From a virus: 64,000 nucleotides of DNA. The stretch lies in IMG/VR virus record IMGVR_UViG_3300017989_005288, one strand, 5' to 3'. A program made the position numbers and the translations under genes. Below, piece by piece: positions 28,453 to 62,455 of this stretch. Each line of letters begins with the position of its first letter. Position 1 is the first letter of the stretch. A model generated the notes under the pieces. It did no database searches, had not been told where the DNA came from, and worked only from the letters and a program-made list of their open reading frames with translations.

Positions 28453-28755
28453 TCAGCCTCGTGCTGTACTACGCAAATATCTCAGTCTTCTATTAAGCTT
28501 TATGAAGTCTTCACGTCCCCACCCACGAAAAGCTCTTGTGCGAGTTAGATTACCAGTATCTCTCCCACGTGATGCAATTTCATCAATCTGGTTAAACAAA
28601 GTTGCTCTTTCTGGCATCGGCAATGGACTGCGTTGCAATTCAAAAAACCTTTTTGCAACTTCAGTATTGGTAACTTGTGACCCCGTTTGAACATACCCTA
28701 ACAAAAATTTCGCTATTCTAACAAGCTCACAAGCAATTTTACGTTCCATATTCAT
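28453..28755 (-). CDS. hypothetical protein with N-terminal IAxELxRIA motif
   Basis: MERKIACELVRIAKFLL. Confidence 0.7.
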   Translation of the reverse strand: MNMERKIACELVRIAKFLLGYVQTGSQVTNTEVAKRFFELQRSPLPMPERATLFNQIDEIASRGRDTGNLTRTRAFRGWGREDFIKLNRRLRYLRSTARG

Positions 28756-32693: not shown

Positions 32694-33325
32694 TAGTTCA
32701 ACGAAACCGAAACTTCTTGCTGTTCCGCTTCTGGCTTAAGTTCTTCCTTAAGCGCGTCCAATCTTATTCCAATTATTGGACGCAAATAAACGTGATAAAA
32801 AAGAAACCACATGAGGTAAGCCAAAAACAAAGTCGTTGCCAACACAAAATTGTCATGCATAAAAAAGACTACAACGCATGCAATTTGGCACAGTCGCCAT
32901 AACATTTCATACAAATACCTAAGAACGCCAGGATTTTTCGTAAAAGCCTTGTTCAACAAATAGGTATCGCGACTCCTAATAACATCCTTGTTTTTCTCCT
33001 CATCCCCATTCTTCTTTCTCAAATCACTTGCTGCAATCCAAGCAGCAGTTGCCAACATCATATGCAATGCTAAGAAAAGAATGAGCATAGTCCAAGTAAA
33101 AAGATTCCCCATCCAACCAAATCCTACTGCCACATTTTCAATGTGTTCATTCGGAGTCCACATCGTTAACACAAGCAAAACTCCAGCACAAGGAACAAAC
33201 ACAGAGCAAAGAGAAGCAAACGCCCACCTCCATTTTGCACCTTTATCTTCTTTTCGAAGCGAATTGACATACTTTTGCACATAATTCGGGTAAGAAGCAA
33301 TGATGTCTACGCTGGACCACCTCAT
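32693..33325 (-). CDS. membrane protein
   Basis: About four hydrophobic helices. Confidence 0.7.
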   Translation of the reverse strand: MRWSSVDIIASYPNYVQKYVNSLRKEDKGAKWRWAFASLCSVFVPCAGVLLVLTMWTPNEHIENVAVGFGWMGNLFTWTMLILFLALHMMLATAAWIAASDLRKKNGDEEKNKDVIRSRDTYLLNKAFTKNPGVLRYLYEMLWRLCQIACVVVFFMHDNFVLATTLFLAYLMWFLFYHVYLRPIIGIRLDALKEELKPEAEQQEVSVSLN

Positions 33326-33726
33326 TTCTTTTTCTCCTTCGGGATTACAATCTCATAATCGTCCAACTCACAAAAATCAAATACATCATCAAAATCCGAC
33401 AAATTGTCTGCTGGTTGTCTCCCCATAGCCCCTACTTCAATCATGTTGTAAACCACATTGCCAAAATCTTGAGTTTTCCTCAACCCCCACTCGTTGAAAA
33501 CCATACGTGCCAAAGGACCAAAAGCTCCAAACGCGGTTTCTTTAATGGACAAACAGAGCTCTTGACCTGTGACATGGCGTGGCTCTTTGAAAGAACTAAC
33601 CAAACATTGCAAGCTAAACAACACAAACTGATATGCACTTGCACTGTAGCGATTATCCTTAGCAAGAATCTCTTTCAAATGCACTGGCGTCACGATTCGG
33701 AACTCCCAGCACAAGTTTTTTGCCAC
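33322..33726 (-). CDS. Minf_1886-family protein (Planctomycetes/Verrucomicrobia-type)
   Basis: D.RY...AYQFV..SL, HVTGQEL, FGPLAR.VF.EWG...T.DFG.VVYNMI, DF..VFDF. Confidence 0.8.
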   Translation of the reverse strand: MAKNLCWEFRIVTPVHLKEILAKDNRYSASAYQFVLFSLQCLVSSFKEPRHVTGQELCLSIKETAFGAFGPLARMVFNEWGLRKTQDFGNVVYNMIEVGAMGRQPADNLSDFDDVFDFCELDDYEIVIPKEKKK

Positions 33727-55283: not shown

Positions 55284-56222
55284 TCATTCTTCATCACTAC
55301 CTCCTCTTTTTTGCATGTACCATCTGTCGTACCTAAAAACAGCCACTTTATTATATTGCTGTGCTACATCCTTTTTACAAGAAATCGCAACTCGCCTGTT
55401 TGACAGAACTTGCCAGAACCGAATAAAATCCCACGCATCATTATGGTCTAAAGAACTCACAATTCTAATCGTCACTTTTTCGCTATCGTCCTTAACATAC
55501 TTCTTGAACTGGTCAGTACTTGATACCTCTACAGGACAACAACCACAAGCATATCTCCACGAAGCAGACAACCCTGGAAACAATGAATCCACACCAACTG
55601 GAGAAATCAAATACACACACGAACAATCAGGCTTCTCAGCAACAAATATCCTATCAAAAAAACCATCATCACGCAGTGACGTGTAACGTTCATTTACAAC
55701 AGGAACTCCCAAAGAACAATAGCGAGCCATTTTTCCAACAGCGTCGCCTTCCAAATTCTCTTGAAACTCCTCCCCCGACTTATCTCCTGGAAAAGGCTCT
55801 AAAAACCACAACCGGCGAGGCGTAACATTTTCCCCTTTTTCCAAAAGATTCTTGAACAGATAACCCAACGCTACTGCCGCATCTCCCAATGCCAATGCGT
55901 ATGTCTTAGCTGTGTGAAACTGATCCAACACTTTCGGAATAGGCCGATCTACAAATGCTATATGTTCCAAAGCATTAGGTGCCTCTTGAATTTCACAAAA
56001 GAAGTGTGTTCTCTTAAAAAAGCGAGAAGCAAATAAGCGCCCATCTGGTAAGAAAATCGATATCCATCCCAAAAATCCACAAGTCAATTGAGCCGCCAAA
56101 ACCATAGCCTCTTCGGGTGAACACGGGGGTGCTTCAAGACGTGATTCACGACCTACATAATGAATATCATCTGTATACTCAAACAGATGTCCCGTTTGGC
56201 TATCATAACCACAAATCATCAA
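55284..56222 (-). CDS. hypothetical protein
   Basis: 312-aa ORF; weak UDG-like segment WFLEPFPG... Confidence 0.65.
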   Translation of the reverse strand: MMICGYDSQTGHLFEYTDDIHYVGRESRLEAPPCSPEEAMVLAAQLTCGFLGWISIFLPDGRLFASRFFKRTHFFCEIQEAPNALEHIAFVDRPIPKVLDQFHTAKTYALALGDAAVALGYLFKNLLEKGENVTPRRLWFLEPFPGDKSGEEFQENLEGDAVGKMARYCSLGVPVVNERYTSLRDDGFFDRIFVAEKPDCSCVYLISPVGVDSLFPGLSASWRYACGCCPVEVSSTDQFKKYVKDDSEKVTIRIVSSLDHNDAWDFIRFWQVLSNRRVAISCKKDVAQQYNKVAVFRYDRWYMQKRGGSDEE

Positions 56223-56446
56223 CTACCATTTCGCGAAAGCCGAATAATTTGTTGAAGAGTCATTCCTTGACGCTGTAAACGCTGAACTTCATTTAATCGA
56301 CTAACTACTCCTGGATCATATAAACGATGTCCTGCTGCTGTACGAGCCTTTTCGCTAATCAATCCCAGCAATGTATAGTTGTGGATTACCTGTCGAGACA
56401 ACCCTGTCTCTCTAACTATATCTTTCATTTTCAGCAGATTATTCAT
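56219..56446 (-). CDS. MerR-family HTH protein
   Basis: IVRETGLSRQVIHNY..LGLI....RT.AGHRLYD. Confidence 0.85.
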   Translation of the reverse strand: MNNLLKMKDIVRETGLSRQVIHNYTLLGLISEKARTAAGHRLYDPGVVSRLNEVQRLQRQGMTLQQIIRLSRNGS

Positions 56447-57630
56447 GCAGTTTTTTCCATCTCCTCTTTGATCCTTTGTATGAGTTTCTTAAGAGTCTCT
56501 TCACTCTTGTTACGGCCAATCTCCCCCAACTCAACTAAAATCTTAGCAATCAGTGGTGCGTACTCGGCAGGACTACTTTTTGACGCAAGAACCAATTTAG
56601 TATACAACCTTCCAATTGCAATAAGCGGTTTGGAAGCAAGCTGTTGTTTTGGATCAAATTCTTTGATTTTCTTCAGCTCACCAACAACCTCATTCAAATA
56701 GGTAATCGCACTTTTCAACACTTTGTCAAACTCTGTTCTGGTCATATCTTTCGACCATTCAACCGCTGCACCAATAAAACCCTTCAAACCAATAACCGTC
56801 GTCAGATATTTTCCCCCACCACGACTGCTGGTAGGCGAAACTTCAAACTGCAAATGCAATCCATGAACTTGTGTGCTTAGCAAGGAAACAATAGCAAATT
56901 CAGATGCTCCAGCTTTGACTTTGGCCATTTTTTCATATAGCTTATCACGCTCAACATCTTCAACCGCAGCACCTTCTGTCGCTTTTAATGCCCTATGCTC
57001 AGCTCTTTCCAAACCTTGGATGCTACGACACTTGTTTGCATAGATAGCTGCATCACGAGCTTCTTGCGTAGTATAGTTCCGAACCTCAATCGGCACCTCA
57101 GTTTCTGGCCCAAACATCAAAGCAAGAAATGTCAACCTATGACGTCCTGACCAACATTCAAAATTCTTACTGCCGTCTTTTAGTTTTGCAACATTGATCG
57201 GCATCCAGGCACGACCAATTTCAAGAATCTGAACACCAACATTTCTGACCTGGCCAATGCTAACTTCAGCCGAAAGGTTAACCGTGTTACGAATAGGAAG
57301 TTGTTTTGCAAGTTCATTCAAAAGTGGATCACCAGGTTCATCGCTGATAAAAATCCCGATATCTTTGATCTTCATTGTTTGTCCACTATGATCGACAAAC
57401 AACTGCTTGATAGTTGGAGGTTTTTCACAACCCGCTCGATGCATGATAGACTCAATAAATTTTTCCTTTGCTGACAATTTTGGCTTTGGAGGTCTACCAC
57501 GCTTTGCTTTTTTCTTTTCTTCCTTTGGCTTTTCCTCTCCATTTTCCGCTTTTTTAGCTCTTTTCGGCTTTGAAGGCGTTGATAATTCCTTCCTGAATTC
57601 AGCAAACTGATCTTCTTTCCCTGCACTCAT
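56443..57630 (-). CDS. ParB/Srx-like domain protein
   Basis: ECWSGRHRL (GxxR) motif followed by a helical region; AAAGGAGG RBS. Confidence 0.6.
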   Translation of the reverse strand: MSAGKEDQFAEFRKELSTPSKPKRAKKAENGEEKPKEEKKKAKRGRPPKPKLSAKEKFIESIMHRAGCEKPPTIKQLFVDHSGQTMKIKDIGIFISDEPGDPLLNELAKQLPIRNTVNLSAEVSIGQVRNVGVQILEIGRAWMPINVAKLKDGSKNFECWSGRHRLTFLALMFGPETEVPIEVRNYTTQEARDAAIYANKCRSIQGLERAEHRALKATEGAAVEDVERDKLYEKMAKVKAGASEFAIVSLLSTQVHGLHLQFEVSPTSSRGGGKYLTTVIGLKGFIGAAVEWSKDMTRTEFDKVLKSAITYLNEVVGELKKIKEFDPKQQLASKPLIAIGRLYTKLVLASKSSPAEYAPLIAKILVELGEIGRNKSEETLKKLIQRIKEEMEKTA

Positions 57631-57698
57631 TTGCAATTCCCTCCTTTGATTAGGATAATACTTTCGACACGATAGTTATAACCTTGTCGCACATAAGA

Positions 57699-58660: not shown

Positions 58661-58693
58661 AAAAAAAGAAAGACGCCAAAAAGACGTCTTTCT
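58661..58693 (-). terminator. rho-independent terminator
   Basis: AGAAAGACGTC-TTTTT-GGCGTCTTTCT stem followed by a T run on the minus strand. Confidence 0.8.
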
Positions 58694-58716
58694 CTAAGCA
58701 AAGCAACCAATTGGAC

Positions 58717-59136
58717 TCAAATGTAGATTCGTTCACACCCTGTTTTGCGTTCTTGCTCACCATTATTGTCTTGAGTTGCGGTATCTGTAAACGTATAAGT
58801 TCCTGAATATCCTGGCCCAGTTTCGCTTCTCACATGAACTCCCAATACTTGCGGAGCAGGAATTGTTTGGTCACAAATAGTATTTCTACCTGTTAGGCGA
58901 ACCCTTACATGATGCAAACCATGCTGTAGCCCAGCGTTGTCAACAATAGCTATGCCTGTCTTAATTGGAAACTCAAGAGGCCAATTTTGAGCAAGTTTCT
59001 GCGACTCATTGATTGTTGCAGGAGCAGCTTCTCCAGGAGTAAACCACTCCCTATTCGCTTGCGCTGCTGCATCTTGTAGAAAATATTCCTTGTCGTCCAA
59101 AATAGTCTCGATACGCTCATTATCAGCCATGATCAA
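58717..59136 (-). CDS. hypothetical protein
   Basis: Last gene before the terminator. Confidence 0.65.
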   Translation of the reverse strand: MIMADNERIETILDDKEYFLQDAAAQANREWFTPGEAAPATINESQKLAQNWPLEFPIKTGIAIVDNAGLQHGLHHVRVRLTGRNTICDQTIPAPQVLGVHVRSETGPGYSGTYTFTDTATQDNNGEQERKTGCERIYI

Positions 59137-60092
59137 CCTCCCGGTTTGATGTTGCTAATCGTGTAAGGCTCACCCAACTTGTCTTGAGAACCATATCCGC
59201 CATGCTCTTTACGAAAGAATGCTCCACGCTTTACATAGGGTTTTGCTTTTTCCACAATGCTCTCAAATTGCTCAGGATTCAACTGTTGAAATGCCTTAGC
59301 AATTGCAACATTTTCTTCAAGTTGAGGCACATTATCATGTCCAACAATCACTGTACTCACTGGACAAGACATTGCAAGTGTAAGTGGTTCCCAAGCAGTT
59401 GTAATACCTTTCGGATGAAAAATATGTCCTTGTGCAAAAGCTTTCATTCCTACAACACCCATGTCACGATCCATTGCAGAAGCCATTACTGAATAGAATG
59501 ACTTGTCCATCGCAATATCAGCCGAATTTGCTGGACACAACACCGTATCGAAATCAAATCGATTCATCATCTCCATAAGTACATCGGGAGACTCATGCCC
59601 AGTAAATCCGAGATAACGAACTATGCCTTGGTCCCGCATTTCAACCAAAGCCTGCAAAGCTCCACCTGGCTTTACAACCTCGTCTATCTCATCAACATTA
59701 GTAAGACTATGAATCTGCCATAAATCAACATAATCCGTTTTCAACCTCTTCAATGATTTTTCAAGTAACGCAAGAGACTTATCACGACTGCGCTCATGCG
59801 TTTTTGTAGCCAAAAAAATCTCATCGCGAAACGCAGGAATTACATCTCCGTACAAATCCTCTGATGGGCCATAAACTGGAGAAGTATCAAAATAGTTGAT
59901 ACCCAACTCATATGCACGCCGAATAATATCACGACAATTTTCTGGATTACCACGTCTTTCCAGTGCACCTTGGCCACCAAGTGAAAAGATGCAAACATCA
60001 AAACCTGTTTTACCAAGTGGCCTTTTTGAGATTGTAGCATTGCTAAGCAGCAACTTAGCAATTTCTTTTATTTCGCGTGCAACATACTTCAT
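59133..60092 (-). CDS. aldo/keto reductase with phage-type N-terminal leader
   Basis: RPLGKTG, GINYFDTSPVYG, LATK, SL.RLKTDYVDLWQIH, GMK. Confidence 0.9.
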   Translation of the reverse strand: MKYVAREIKEIAKLLLSNATISKRPLGKTGFDVCIFSLGGQGALERRGNPENCRDIIRRAYELGINYFDTSPVYGPSEDLYGDVIPAFRDEIFLATKTHERSRDKSLALLEKSLKRLKTDYVDLWQIHSLTNVDEIDEVVKPGGALQALVEMRDQGIVRYLGFTGHESPDVLMEMMNRFDFDTVLCPANSADIAMDKSFYSVMASAMDRDMGVVGMKAFAQGHIFHPKGITTAWEPLTLAMSCPVSTVIVGHDNVPQLEENVAIAKAFQQLNPEQFESIVEKAKPYVKRGAFFRKEHGGYGSQDKLGEPYTISNIKPGG

Positions 60093-61465
60093 CGTCTTGG
60101 AGTGCCTTTTCCCCCAATTCGAGCAATTTCATCCATCCTTGATTCAGGAACACCTAATTCGCCCAAAACTGTATACACAACCAAGTCGGGTTGATTTTCT
60201 GCGCTATCCAGCTCTTTATCCAACTTATAAAGCCCACGATGAACAACACTATTCGACTTCATAACACGGCTAAGCATTTCGTAGCCATGTTCGAGATTTT
60301 CTTGTGGAATCACATCAAGAACCTTTGACTTTCCAATCACTACACAAGCTGCTATAGAAGCAATGTTCAAATCCAATTCCGCAACCAATATGTTCCTACG
60401 CAAATTGTCACGAATAGCATAGCTAATATCCGTAGCACTATCCCATTTTATCAATGGTGTTGCTCCAAAAGTAATCACACCGCTGGTAAGAACTCCTGCC
60501 AAATCAGACCTGTCAAACGTAGTTATCGCATTCTCGCCTCTTGTAGCAGCAATATTGTTAAACAGGTGAAACAAACCACTAATGCTTTGATTAGCCACAC
60601 CCCAAAACTGCGTCACAGGCAAACCTGGGTATAGCTTGCTGATACGGTCATTGTCAACGATAATCAAAGGCGAAATGCTTCGGCCCGCTATTTTGCCTTT
60701 GTCCCTTCCTACTTTCCCAAAAAGCATAGTCAAAACGTTGTGCGCGTTATAGTTGACCTTTTGTCCTTCGCCAGATTGAGGCATAGATACCAGTACACCA
60801 ACAACAGGAGGTTGACCAGGACCACCCTCAAGCTTGAAAGATTCAGCAATATCATGACTGATATCAACAAGCGTCTCTACAGAACCACTGCCTGTTCCTC
60901 CTCCAGCTCCAATGCAAATCAAAATACGCTCCCAATCTTTCCCAAAGCTCCTTTTCATCAAATCGTAGACGTCTTCATAATACTGTTTGACTGCCTGCTT
61001 TCCTTTTTCCGGTTCTTTTCCTGCACCACCTTCACCAATATCCATCACCAGCTTATTCTCTTCTGGAATGTTGATTGCTGTTAAATCCTGACTATTTGTG
61101 TTAATCGCACAAACACGCCGATAGCCTAACTTGTAAAAAGTTTCTACCATTCGTGCGCCAGCTTGACCTGCTCCAATAAACGCAAATTTGAATGCTACAT
61201 CGCACTCATCATGGACAACTTCTCTTTCCTCCACATCAGCAGGCATCGGAATGTTTGGAACAACAAATCCACTCTGGTTTTCCATGGGAGTTTCTCCTTT
61301 AGGTTTATCTTCTCCGGTATCCATACCGGCACTCAAAGCATTCACATCCAAGTCCAACTTCTTTTTCCCCATAACTCTTTCTCCCGTGCTTCGCTCGACG
61401 TCATCATCAATCACTATTTCAACTTTATTGCCAACCCTCCGAAGCATGAACCTTTTCAGTTGCAC
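60089..61465 (-). CDS. tubulin/FtsZ-superfamily GTPase
   Basis: IGAGQAGAR, AINTN, GEGGAGK, signature GAGGGTGSG, DND, FDRSD. Confidence 0.88.
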   Translation of the reverse strand: MQLKRFMLRRVGNKVEIVIDDDVERSTGERVMGKKKLDLDVNALSAGMDTGEDKPKGETPMENQSGFVVPNIPMPADVEEREVVHDECDVAFKFAFIGAGQAGARMVETFYKLGYRRVCAINTNSQDLTAINIPEENKLVMDIGEGGAGKEPEKGKQAVKQYYEDVYDLMKRSFGKDWERILICIGAGGGTGSGSVETLVDISHDIAESFKLEGGPGQPPVVGVLVSMPQSGEGQKVNYNAHNVLTMLFGKVGRDKGKIAGRSISPLIIVDNDRISKLYPGLPVTQFWGVANQSISGLFHLFNNIAATRGENAITTFDRSDLAGVLTSGVITFGATPLIKWDSATDISYAIRDNLRRNILVAELDLNIASIAACVVIGKSKVLDVIPQENLEHGYEMLSRVMKSNSVVHRGLYKLDKELDSAENQPDLVVYTVLGELGVPESRMDEIARIGGKGTPRR

Positions 61466-62265
61466 TACTTTGTCTTCTTTGGCCCCTTACGCCACTTAGT
61501 GGTCCCCTCCACATAATCCTTCAATGAAGCACAAAAAGCCGCTGGATCGGTTACTTTACCAGCCATATCTTTCATGCACTTTGTGGCTTTATGCTTGGCA
61601 TCGCCAGTAAGAGTAGCCCAATACTTCAATGCGCTTTCACGTGTCCAACCACGAGGAAGTTTCTCCCAAGCTGCACGCCGAGAAGGACCACGCCAATAAG
61701 TAGTTCCTTCGATCATATCACGCAATGAAGCACAAAAAGCTGCCGGGTCAGTTACTTTACCAGCCATATCTTTCATGCACTTTGTAACCTTATGTTTAGC
61801 ATCACCAGTAAGAGTAGCCCAATAGCTTTTGACGCTTTCCATCGTCCAACCGCGAGGCAAATCTTTCCAACCCAATGCTGTTCTTGATCTAACTCGATCT
61901 AACACGGCACGAACCTGCCATGGTTCAAGACCCGTCATCTCACAAACATGAGTTCCCAAACTTGCCTTTTTCAAACCAGAGCTATGCCAATTCTTACGTA
62001 ATTCAGTTACTGCCTTCTTGATTTTTTGAGTCCACTCCTTCAAATCACGAGGTGTGTAATCAGCCGCTGCCTTTTGCATGATTGTGTCTCGCACAGCAGA
62101 CAACTTAACTGACTTAACATGCAATTCACGCATTTTGGCAGCGCAAGGAGCACAAATTTCTTCCATTTCGTTCGCTGTAATCATGCTATCAGGAAAATCT
62201 TGCACTAATTGATCGATAGCAATTCTCATAATCATTTGCTCAGCTGCGACCCTTTTTAATGACAT
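61465..62265 (-). CDS. hypothetical protein with two 67-aa repeats
   Basis: Likely start MSLKRVAAE (GGAGGA RBS); duplicated W..LPRGWT.ES...YWATLTGDAKHK.TKCMKDMAGKVTDPAAFCASL. Confidence 0.75.
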   Translation of the reverse strand: MSLKRVAAEQMIMRIAIDQLVQDFPDSMITANEMEEICAPCAAKMRELHVKSVKLSAVRDTIMQKAAADYTPRDLKEWTQKIKKAVTELRKNWHSSGLKKASLGTHVCEMTGLEPWQVRAVLDRVRSRTALGWKDLPRGWTMESVKSYWATLTGDAKHKVTKCMKDMAGKVTDPAAFCASLRDMIEGTTYWRGPSRRAAWEKLPRGWTRESALKYWATLTGDAKHKATKCMKDMAGKVTDPAAFCASLKDYVEGTTKWRKGPKKTK

Positions 62266-62377
62266 TTTCTTATCCTCCTTATCCTCTTCTTTGTCATCGC
62301 GCAATCCGTAATCATGTCGCCTACGGAGTGGTTGAATTGGCATAACAACTTGTCCTATAATGTTTTATGTTAAACTC

Positions 62378-62402
62378 CTTGGAGGAATTGCTTTCCTCCA
62401 AG
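62378..62402. other. perfect 10-bp inverted repeat
   Basis: CTTGGAGGAA-TTGCT-TTCCTCCAAG. Confidence 0.7.
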
Positions 62403-62455
62403 AAAATCAGCTCTTTCGTATAAAGCCAAATATAAAAAAATTATGGCATGAAAAC

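Follow-up and report, generated by a model that had tools for sequence, protein, structure and literature searches.

Two models are available for how phage tubulins work. PhuZ, a tubulin of the Chimalliviridae jumbo phages phiKZ and 201phi2-1, handles phage DNA in company with a nucleus shell, and TubZ of the large Clostridium phage c-st belongs to a partition system, acting with TubR and TubY in a cassette that operates in lysogeny. Outside the viruses, the nearest described proteins are TubZ/RepX, the type III partition GTPase of the Bacillus plasmids pBtoxis and pXO1, and CetZ of the Euryarchaeota, an archaeal cell-shape protein. Here we analyze a tubulin/FtsZ-superfamily gene in a 64,000-nucleotide (nt) stretch of viral DNA, IMG/VR record IMGVR_UViG_3300017989_005288, which we call the window; the coordinates of its features are in Table 1, and related loci and proteins carry our L and P numbers. 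In reviews, phage tubulins have two representatives (PMC7824862, PMC7950403). We propose, with a probability of roughly 0.6, that the product of the window gene is a tubulin that forms filaments in a GTP-dependent manner and organizes replicating phage DNA, and that it represents a third viral lineage, apart from PhuZ and from the c-st and Bacillus TubZ proteins.

The window gene is a complete tubulin/FtsZ-superfamily GTPase. Counted from the first GTG it encodes 458 amino acids (aa), and the Pfam model Tubulin (PF00091) matches the product at 41.8 bits, above the cut-off of 33. An earlier first-pass annotation, made from the DNA letters alone, had reported an intact GGGTGSG signature and no FtsZ-type C-terminal tail, and both observations stand. 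The signature is loop T4, at residues 188-194; T1 reads GAGQAG, and the DND of T7 (D271, N272, and D273) aligns with the T7 loops of TubZ and FtsZ. Across an alignment of 30 family members the consensus loops are GxGQxG (T1), GGAGK (T3), GAGGGTG.G (T4), and DN(D/E) (T7), with invariant columns at G98/G100/Q101/G103, G146-K150, G186-G194, and D271/N272, respectively. The AlphaFold (AF2) model has a mean predicted local distance difference test score (pLDDT) of 84.6, mostly above 90 in the core, and a predicted TM-score of 0.80. Its two-domain fold aligns with all superfamily branches outside PhuZ at Z-scores of 27-38, computed with VIA. Both the alignment and the model place a conserved C-terminal helix at residues 441-450, and the protein stops 8 mostly basic residues later; it therefore lacks an FtsZ-like linker or C-terminal peptide, and Pfam finds no FtsZ_C domain.

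The window protein is neither FtsZ nor PhuZ. The FtsZ equivalog model TIGR00065 scores it at 57.2 bits against a cut-off of 295.2. No PHROG matches it at E<=0.01, including the PhuZ profile phrog_4733, which scores PhuZ of phiKZ at 4.6e-118 and c-st TubZ at 1e-14; c-st TubZ also matches phrog_17961. The T1, T4, and T7 motifs differ from those of PhuZ. When the single sequence was searched against the Protein Data Bank (PDB), RepX was the best match (5e-12) and PhuZ was not among the 43 matches at E<=10. A family profile matched RepX (2e-21), Methanocaldococcus jannaschii FtsZ (3e-18), and TubZ-Bt (8e-15) over their full length, and PhuZ was not among the best 60 of its 141 matches. The structural comparison runs in the same direction: the model aligned best with TubZ-Bc (Z 37.8; 343 residues, root-mean-square deviation 2.8), then with CetZ2 (35.1), TubZ-Bt (33.4), c-st TubZ (31.0), FtsZ (29.7), BtubA and tubulins (about 27), and PhuZ (20.8-22.0), and Foldseek ranks the solved structures in the same order. 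Among the viral models of BFVD the sole strong match was an uncultured-phage protein labeled 'FtsZ', with PhuZ models next at a TM-score of 0.45.

TubZ/RepX is thus the best solved match in both sequence and structure. The window family shares with it the T1 GxGQxG and T7 DN motifs, which are found in neither FtsZ nor PhuZ, and the layout beyond the core, a C-terminal helix and then a basic end. A TubZ-like_C domain is annotated on many homologs (26% of the nearest atlas cluster), although the corresponding profiles (PF22453/PF21493) do not appear among the matches of the window protein itself at E<=0.01. However, identity to TubZ/RepX is only about 21%, neither tubR nor a centromere was identified on the 5' side of the window gene, with spacer repeats searched in part, and the C-terminal tail is very short; the family adds an N-terminal tail and a pre-core motif, and it sits in a phage replication module. 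The c-st protein likewise comes from a large phage and has a GQ T1 and a DN T7, but the family profile matches it at 2.4e-10 over the N-terminal domain alone. By structure CetZ ranks second (Z 35.1 and 32.1); its length is similar and it, too, has no FtsZ tail, and its profile E values are 2e-12 to 2e-10; Pfam CetZ_C does not match the window protein. A further candidate, FtsZl1 (Pfam Tubulin_2), was ruled out. FtsZl1 has an FtsZ-like domain at its N terminus, followed by a long coiled coil and then by a helical domain at the C terminus (Makarova and Koonin 2010; PMC2875224), whereas the window protein, of 398-458 aa, has no coiled-coil/helical C-terminal region; Tubulin_2 matches on homologs are weak.

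Phylogenetic analysis gave the family a position of its own. The trees hold viral loci, loci from cellular genomes, and references, namely FtsZ of Escherichia coli, Flavobacterium, a gammaproteobacterium, and two archaea, PhuZ of phiKZ and 201phi2-1, and TubZ of pBtoxis and c-st; CetZ, Btub, and eukaryotic sequences were not included. In a quick tree of 75 rows, the SH-like approximate likelihood ratio test supported the viral group at 98, the cellular group at 92, and a separate FtsZ group at 99. A more careful tree of 38 rows recovered FtsZ (100/100), PhuZ (100/99), a cellular clade (94/95), and a viral clade (63/67), within which the window protein and those of L080 and L002 form a subclade (100/99). 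Viral and cellular labels each change once on the tree. The locus labeled 'Flavobacterium' that falls in the viral clade, L006, is a 16.5-kb contig with a phage DnaE, and we treat it as phage DNA that was binned into a metagenome-assembled genome. The suggestion that the window tubulin might belong to a distinct clade is supported: it lies in a clade apart from FtsZ and PhuZ and from the TubZ references, whose own attachment is poorly supported, and the grouping within host FtsZ that would have spoken against it was not seen among the sequences in the tree.

The family is large and consists almost entirely of viral proteins. A word-indexed protein search returned 823 proteins at E<=0.001, with 45-71% identity among the matches listed. 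More than 385 IMG/VR loci carry the viral gene, on contigs of up to 211 kb; representative clusters number 187 at 1e-30, 434 at 1e-10, and 1,109 at 1e-3, and the protein-atlas clusters of the family are 87-100% viral. No cultured relative was found among 50,697 phage records, either by tblastn with the tubulin or by megablast with 14 kb. No description of the viral clade was found in the literature searched, which is not proof that none exists.

The gene order of the viral loci, obtained by clustering 1,749 neighboring open reading frames (ORFs), connects the tubulin with DNA replication, and most family members lie in a replication module. In the main clade the order is fixed: RecA/UvsX and three small ORFs precede the tubulin, which is followed by DnaB and then by a primase, a PD-(D/E)XK exonuclease, and DnaE; TerL and a 658-aa protein of unknown function are also nearby. 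In 34 viral loci the tubulin and the DnaB gene downstream of it are separated by a median of 37 bp; RecA/UvsX is close by in 38 viral loci. In the window subclade the tubulin is flanked by a flap endonuclease and a kinase and by SbcD and DnaE. Further evidence comes from six representative homologs outside the window (P0138, P0141, P0169, P0173, P0181, and P0254) that contain complete inteins with LAGLIDADG homing endonucleases, one of them in T1 after GQGG (Ser +1) and five in T4 between GGG and TGSG (Thr +1). Inteins inside GTP-binding loops imply that the sites and the gene are under strong constraint in these phages, an independent indication. They seem to be unreported for the superfamily: no description of inteins in tubulin/FtsZ proteins was found in the literature searched, which is not proof that none exists. 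The first-pass annotation had proposed a search for chimallin, and none was found (phrog_4795) in two relatives of about 200 kb that are 100% and 93% complete, with phiKZ and 201phi2-1 positive as controls, the window genome itself being only about 14% sampled. The window-family phages also differ from the PhuZ phages in having a DnaE-type polymerase.

A polymerizing GTPase that would position phage DNA is the reading to which these data point: the nucleotide pocket and T7 loop are intact, the fold is TubZ/CetZ-like, the gene lies next to the helicase, and inteins have targeted it. The protein has a variable, charged, disordered N-terminal tail ahead of the conserved pre-core peptide and a two-domain core like that of TubZ, and it closes with a C-terminal helix and a short basic stretch. 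In the mechanism that we envisage, it would belong to the replication module, be expressed along with the replication genes, and build dynamic filaments during infection, and these filaments would position or partition replicating phage DNA with no chimallin shell. If so, a lineage with hundreds of environmental members, none of them cultured, a fixed place by the helicase, and no shell would represent a third way in which large phages organize their DNA.

Several points weigh against this interpretation. Polymerization and the role in DNA organization are predictions from sequence and a structural model. The sequence trees cannot place the TubZ references, whose branches are 4.9-6.0 changes per column long and whose attachment support is at most 36/62 in the 38-row tree. 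The conserved neighbors of the main clade are missing from the window subclade: hidden Markov models of its 93-, 127-, 138-, and 658-aa ORFs and of TerL have no match in the window, L001, L080, or L002. No TubR-like adaptor or centromere repeats were identified, with spacer repeats not exhaustively searched; no helix-turn-helix (HTH) family is found on the neighbors of the window tubulin by Pfam, PHROG, or NCBIfam; and the repeat protein encoded upstream has no recognizable DNA-binding fold. Finally, the IMG/VR record covers only about 14% of this phage's genome, and the window phage itself could possess a shell protein or a lysogenic lifestyle.

In a second explanation, the protein is the motor of a type III, TubZRC-like partition system that, as in c-st, would hand the phage genome to the daughter cells when the host divides, the phage persisting as a low-copy episomal prophage or pseudolysogen. 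It would account for TubZ/RepX being nearest among solved structures and sequences, for the short basic C-terminal end, as in TubZ, and for the direct terminal repeats of one complete relative; DNA-linked functions are also suggested by a cellular paralog fused to a Fis-type HTH and by the very basic tails of cellular relatives. We nevertheless consider it rather unlikely. The gene lies within a lytic replication module, next to DnaB in the 34 viral loci, instead of in an autonomous cassette, and, within the limits of the spacer search just mentioned, TubR and an iterated centromere were not found. Neither Pfam nor PHROG assigns the small ORFs upstream of the main-clade tubulin, and partners vary even inside the subclade.

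Although Planctomycetota are known as a phylum that lacks FtsZ, the closest cellular relatives of the window protein are almost all encoded there, in metagenome-assembled genomes. A scan of one genome per species identified 77 cellular loci whose proteins are 33-42% identical over the full length and have the same layout and the same T1, T4, and T7 motifs; the great majority are from Planctomycetota (Pirellulales, Phycisphaerae, and Sedimentisphaerales) and some from Omnitrophota. On a closed 2.96-Mb chromosome the gene is found among housekeeping genes, and no canonical FtsZ was detected in four genomes carrying such TubZ-like relatives. The cellular proteins differ from the viral ones in forming a separate clade (94/95), in having housekeeping genes as neighbors, in their very basic N-terminal tails, which are rich in K/R/S/T and up to about 230 aa long (L052:5732 onward; L054, L060, L007), and in their tandem paralogs. 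The pre-core motif is IPTLDLEQYE in the cellular relatives, as opposed to VDVPDIPMP in the phage clade, with its mixed-charge tails. A tandem pair is present in 18 cellular loci (for example L015:9956-12993; also L004, L010, L016, L022, L025, L037, L038, L069, L072, L073, and others); the short member has about 380-430 aa and the long one about 520-650 aa, ending in a sigma-54-activator-like AAA lid and a Fis-type HTH. No description of planctomycetal TubZ-like genes or of the tandem pairs was found in the literature searched, which is not proof that none exists. The cellular sister clade shows that some members of an FtsZ-less phylum have tubulin homologs, and it offers a concrete gene pair for the study of planctomycetal cell biology.

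The host of the window phage probably belongs to the Planctomycetes-Verrucomicrobia-Chlamydiae (PVC) group, whether as a planctomycete or another member. One window ORF matches TIGR04138 (Plancto_Ver_chp, the Minf_1886 family) at 117 bits, and this family was found in 130 of 151 sampled Planctomycetota genomes, in comparison with 0/151 sampled Bacteroidota genomes and 0/14 control genomes. It was not found in five related viral records, and the PVC signal is therefore particular to the window phage. The idea of a planctomycete host without FtsZ is thus plausible, both from TIGR04138 and from the nearest cellular relatives, but a cell without FtsZ is not a cell without tubulin, because some Planctomycetota have chromosomal relatives. 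Such a host could make the viral protein a takeover factor that disturbs, co-polymerizes with, or replaces a host TubZ-like cytoskeleton, or that reshapes the cell, and the chromosomal position of the closest relatives in FtsZ-less Planctomycetota and Omnitrophota would agree with this. We strongly doubt it. The cellular family is sporadic, with a match in 6 of 301 sampled Planctomycetota genomes and most of those matches distant, so that the target would be missing from most potential hosts; viral and cellular proteins fall in different clades, and synteny points to replication.

The tubulin is phage-borne, because the window DNA is cataloged as an IMG/VR virus and relatives of the gene adjoin TerL, DnaB, and DnaE. 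The window phage is an uncultured jumbo phage: the IMG/VR record of the same DNA (L001, 47.5 kb) is 14% complete by CheckV, corresponding to a genome of about 340 kb. All long ORFs of the window are on the minus strand, GC content is steady at 41%, and along the whole window the skew between G and C is strongly negative. Encoded are a DnaE-type polymerase, a flap endonuclease, a type II topoisomerase pair, an NAD ligase, SbcCD-like nucleases, and a large glycan-synthesis cluster; the window contains no tRNAs. It could be argued that the tubulin was captured from a host and sits on a provirus or host island, with no phage-specific role, because IMG/VR classes both L001 and L080 as provirus and trims L001 precisely where the tubulin gene ends, at its stop codon. 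We read this cut as an artifact of the prediction, caused by the host-like aldo-keto reductase (AKR) and glycan genes, since replication genes, the single coding strand, and the constant skew continue on both sides of the cut and L080 keeps its gene order across it. With the protein also placed in the viral and not the cellular clade, capture of a host gene is hardly credible.

The tubulin is the second gene of a block of four ORFs, whose junctions abut or overlap by 1-4 nt (Table 1). The first-pass annotation regarded this block as a discrete operon bounded upstream by an AT-rich motif and a hairpin and downstream by a strong terminator. Tight packing, the terminator, and the upstream hairpin agree with that description, but the AT-rich 20-mer occurs once in the window, even with up to 3 mismatches allowed, and was rejected as a recurrent promoter motif. 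As a functional unit the block is not conserved, because none of the 81 related viral loci has a counterpart of the AKR and the partners differ in L080 and L002: L080 has a one-module homolog of the 292-aa repeat protein 5' of its tubulin and a different gene, for a protein of 140 aa, at the AKR position, and L002 has neither of these two genes. Past the terminator, a promoter-like TTGTCA...TATAAT would serve the next gene.

Table 1. Positions, in window coordinates, of the tubulin gene, its block, and other features mentioned in the text
Feature	Position	Strand	Basis or remark
Upstream spacer, 112 nt	62344..62455	(-)	AT-rich promoter-like stretch and hairpin
AT-rich promoter-like stretch, 20 nt	62426-62445	(-)	sequence
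Hairpin, 12-bp stem, no T-run	62376-62404	(-)	-30.2 kcal/mol, z = -3.84
Repeat protein, 292 aa, all-helical	61465..62343	(-)	two tandem 65-aa modules
First and second 65-aa modules	61669-61878; 61468-61668
In-frame 5' extension of the 292-aa gene	62266-62343
Tubulin/FtsZ-superfamily GTPase, TubZ-like viral clade	60089..61465	(-)	motifs, Pfam, AF2 model, tree
Candidate tubulin starts	GTG 61465; ATG 61447 (M7); ATG 61372 (M32); ATG 61285 (M61)	(-)	sequence
In-frame 5' extension of the tubulin gene	61285-61465
Tubulin T4, GGGTGSG	60884-60904
Tubulin T7, DND	60647-60655
AKR	59133..60092	(-)	Pfam Aldo_ket_red 5.5e-32
Hypothetical protein, 139 aa	58717..59136	(-)	L080 homolog, 49% identity
Intrinsic terminator, 13-bp stem and T-run	58665..58695	(-)	closes the block
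397-aa protein	56443-57636
MerR-like HTH ORF, 75 aa	56219-56446
312-aa protein	55284-56222
TIGR04138 ORF	33322-33726		117 bits
Leader-bearing ORF	28453-28755

The repeat protein recognized by the first-pass annotation does consist of repeats: its two 65-aa modules are 78% identical (E 1e-37), and the module is also found on 16 metagenomic proteins of 162-503 aa. The AF2 model (pLDDT 74) shows three-helix modules, and Foldseek returned no PDB match at E<=0.001, on which ground a role as DNA-binding adaptor was rejected. The 139-aa protein at the other end of the block has no Pfam, PHROG, or NCBIfam match.

In the AKR, the residues of the D-Y-K-H tetrad are legible, and NCBIfam AKR models match only below their cut-offs. 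The protein begins with an amphipathic leader of about 22 aa, VAREIKEIAKLLL, ahead of the normal AKR start. A role as a KidO-like regulator of the tubulin was rejected, because the related viral loci have no AKR and the window protein retains D-Y-K-H. Nine Planctomycetota loci have an AKR near the tubulin; seven of these are one syntenic lineage, and its AKRs bear twin-arginine export signals. The leader, [VI]AxE[LI]xx[IL][AG]xxL[LIM], heads the gene directly 3' of the tubulin both in the window and in L080 (11240-11662), where that gene encodes the unrelated 140-aa protein. The strict motif is rare, with 1 occurrence in the 1,749 ORFs of the fetched related loci. It is conceivable that the filament is a scaffold or track recruiting cargo with such leaders, for example the AKR, but this would be based on the sequences of two lineages, such a gene is missing from L002, the third member of the subclade, and a further leader-bearing window ORF is 30 kb away from the AKR; we regard this explanation as very improbable.

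A broader proposal would combine these strands. The window protein would be the first example of a third viral tubulin lineage that is widespread in the environment, forming a replication-coupled, DNA-organizing cytoskeleton in jumbo phages without chimallin; the lineage would share ancestry with a hitherto unrecognized tandem chromosomal tubulin system, one member of it HTH-fused, in FtsZ-less Planctomycetota and Omnitrophota, and its filament might recruit leader-tagged proteins. We put this forward tentatively, as possible in all its parts together but on balance doubtful.

The length of the N terminus depends on the start codon. The extension of about 90 aa described by the first-pass annotation is the longest reading, and the true one is likely shorter, with initiation likely at M32 or M61, judging from the sequence around the candidates and from shorter relatives. 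Shine-Dalgarno sites are in use in the window phage, and M61 is preceded by AAGGAG-N7-ATG and M32 by GGAG-N8-ATG. A protein initiated at M32 would have 427 aa, exactly as many as its L080 relative (66% identical), and the L002 tubulin (64% identical) has just 10 residues ahead of the conserved motif. That motif, V-P-[DN]-I-P-[ML]-P ... D-E-C within the pre-core residues ~66-92, is the sole N-terminal part conserved throughout the family. Residues 23-67 are disordered in the AF2 model, and the tail before the pre-core varies from 0 to about 140 residues among 120 homologs. Many long homologs have an in-frame Met exactly where short forms start, and short N-terminal peptides such as VLHGS[RH]xQ are common to several of them. 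These features suggest that dual initiation or a functional N-terminal peptide may exist in the tubulin.

Leader peptides are also kept among tubulin homologs that have the layout of extension and internal Met (VLHGS.., NWRRV.., SGNAHPY..). The in-frame 5' extensions of the tubulin and 292-aa genes are both built with a basic peptide first and a strong internal Shine-Dalgarno site and Met last, an arrangement that may reflect dual initiation. The basic peptide is LRRV... in the tubulin and the conserved QPLRRRHDYG in the 292-aa protein, where it is kept in L080 and the internal Met is residue 27.

Two window genes between SbcD and DnaE encode proteins without assignment, 397 and 312 aa long, and a MerR-like HTH ORF of 75 aa lies between these genes. 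The 312-aa protein was found only in L080; conservation of the 397-aa protein extends to L080 and L002 alike. The 397-aa protein has no profile match; it has a lysine-rich N terminus and an SGRHRL motif that recalls ParB/Srx domains.

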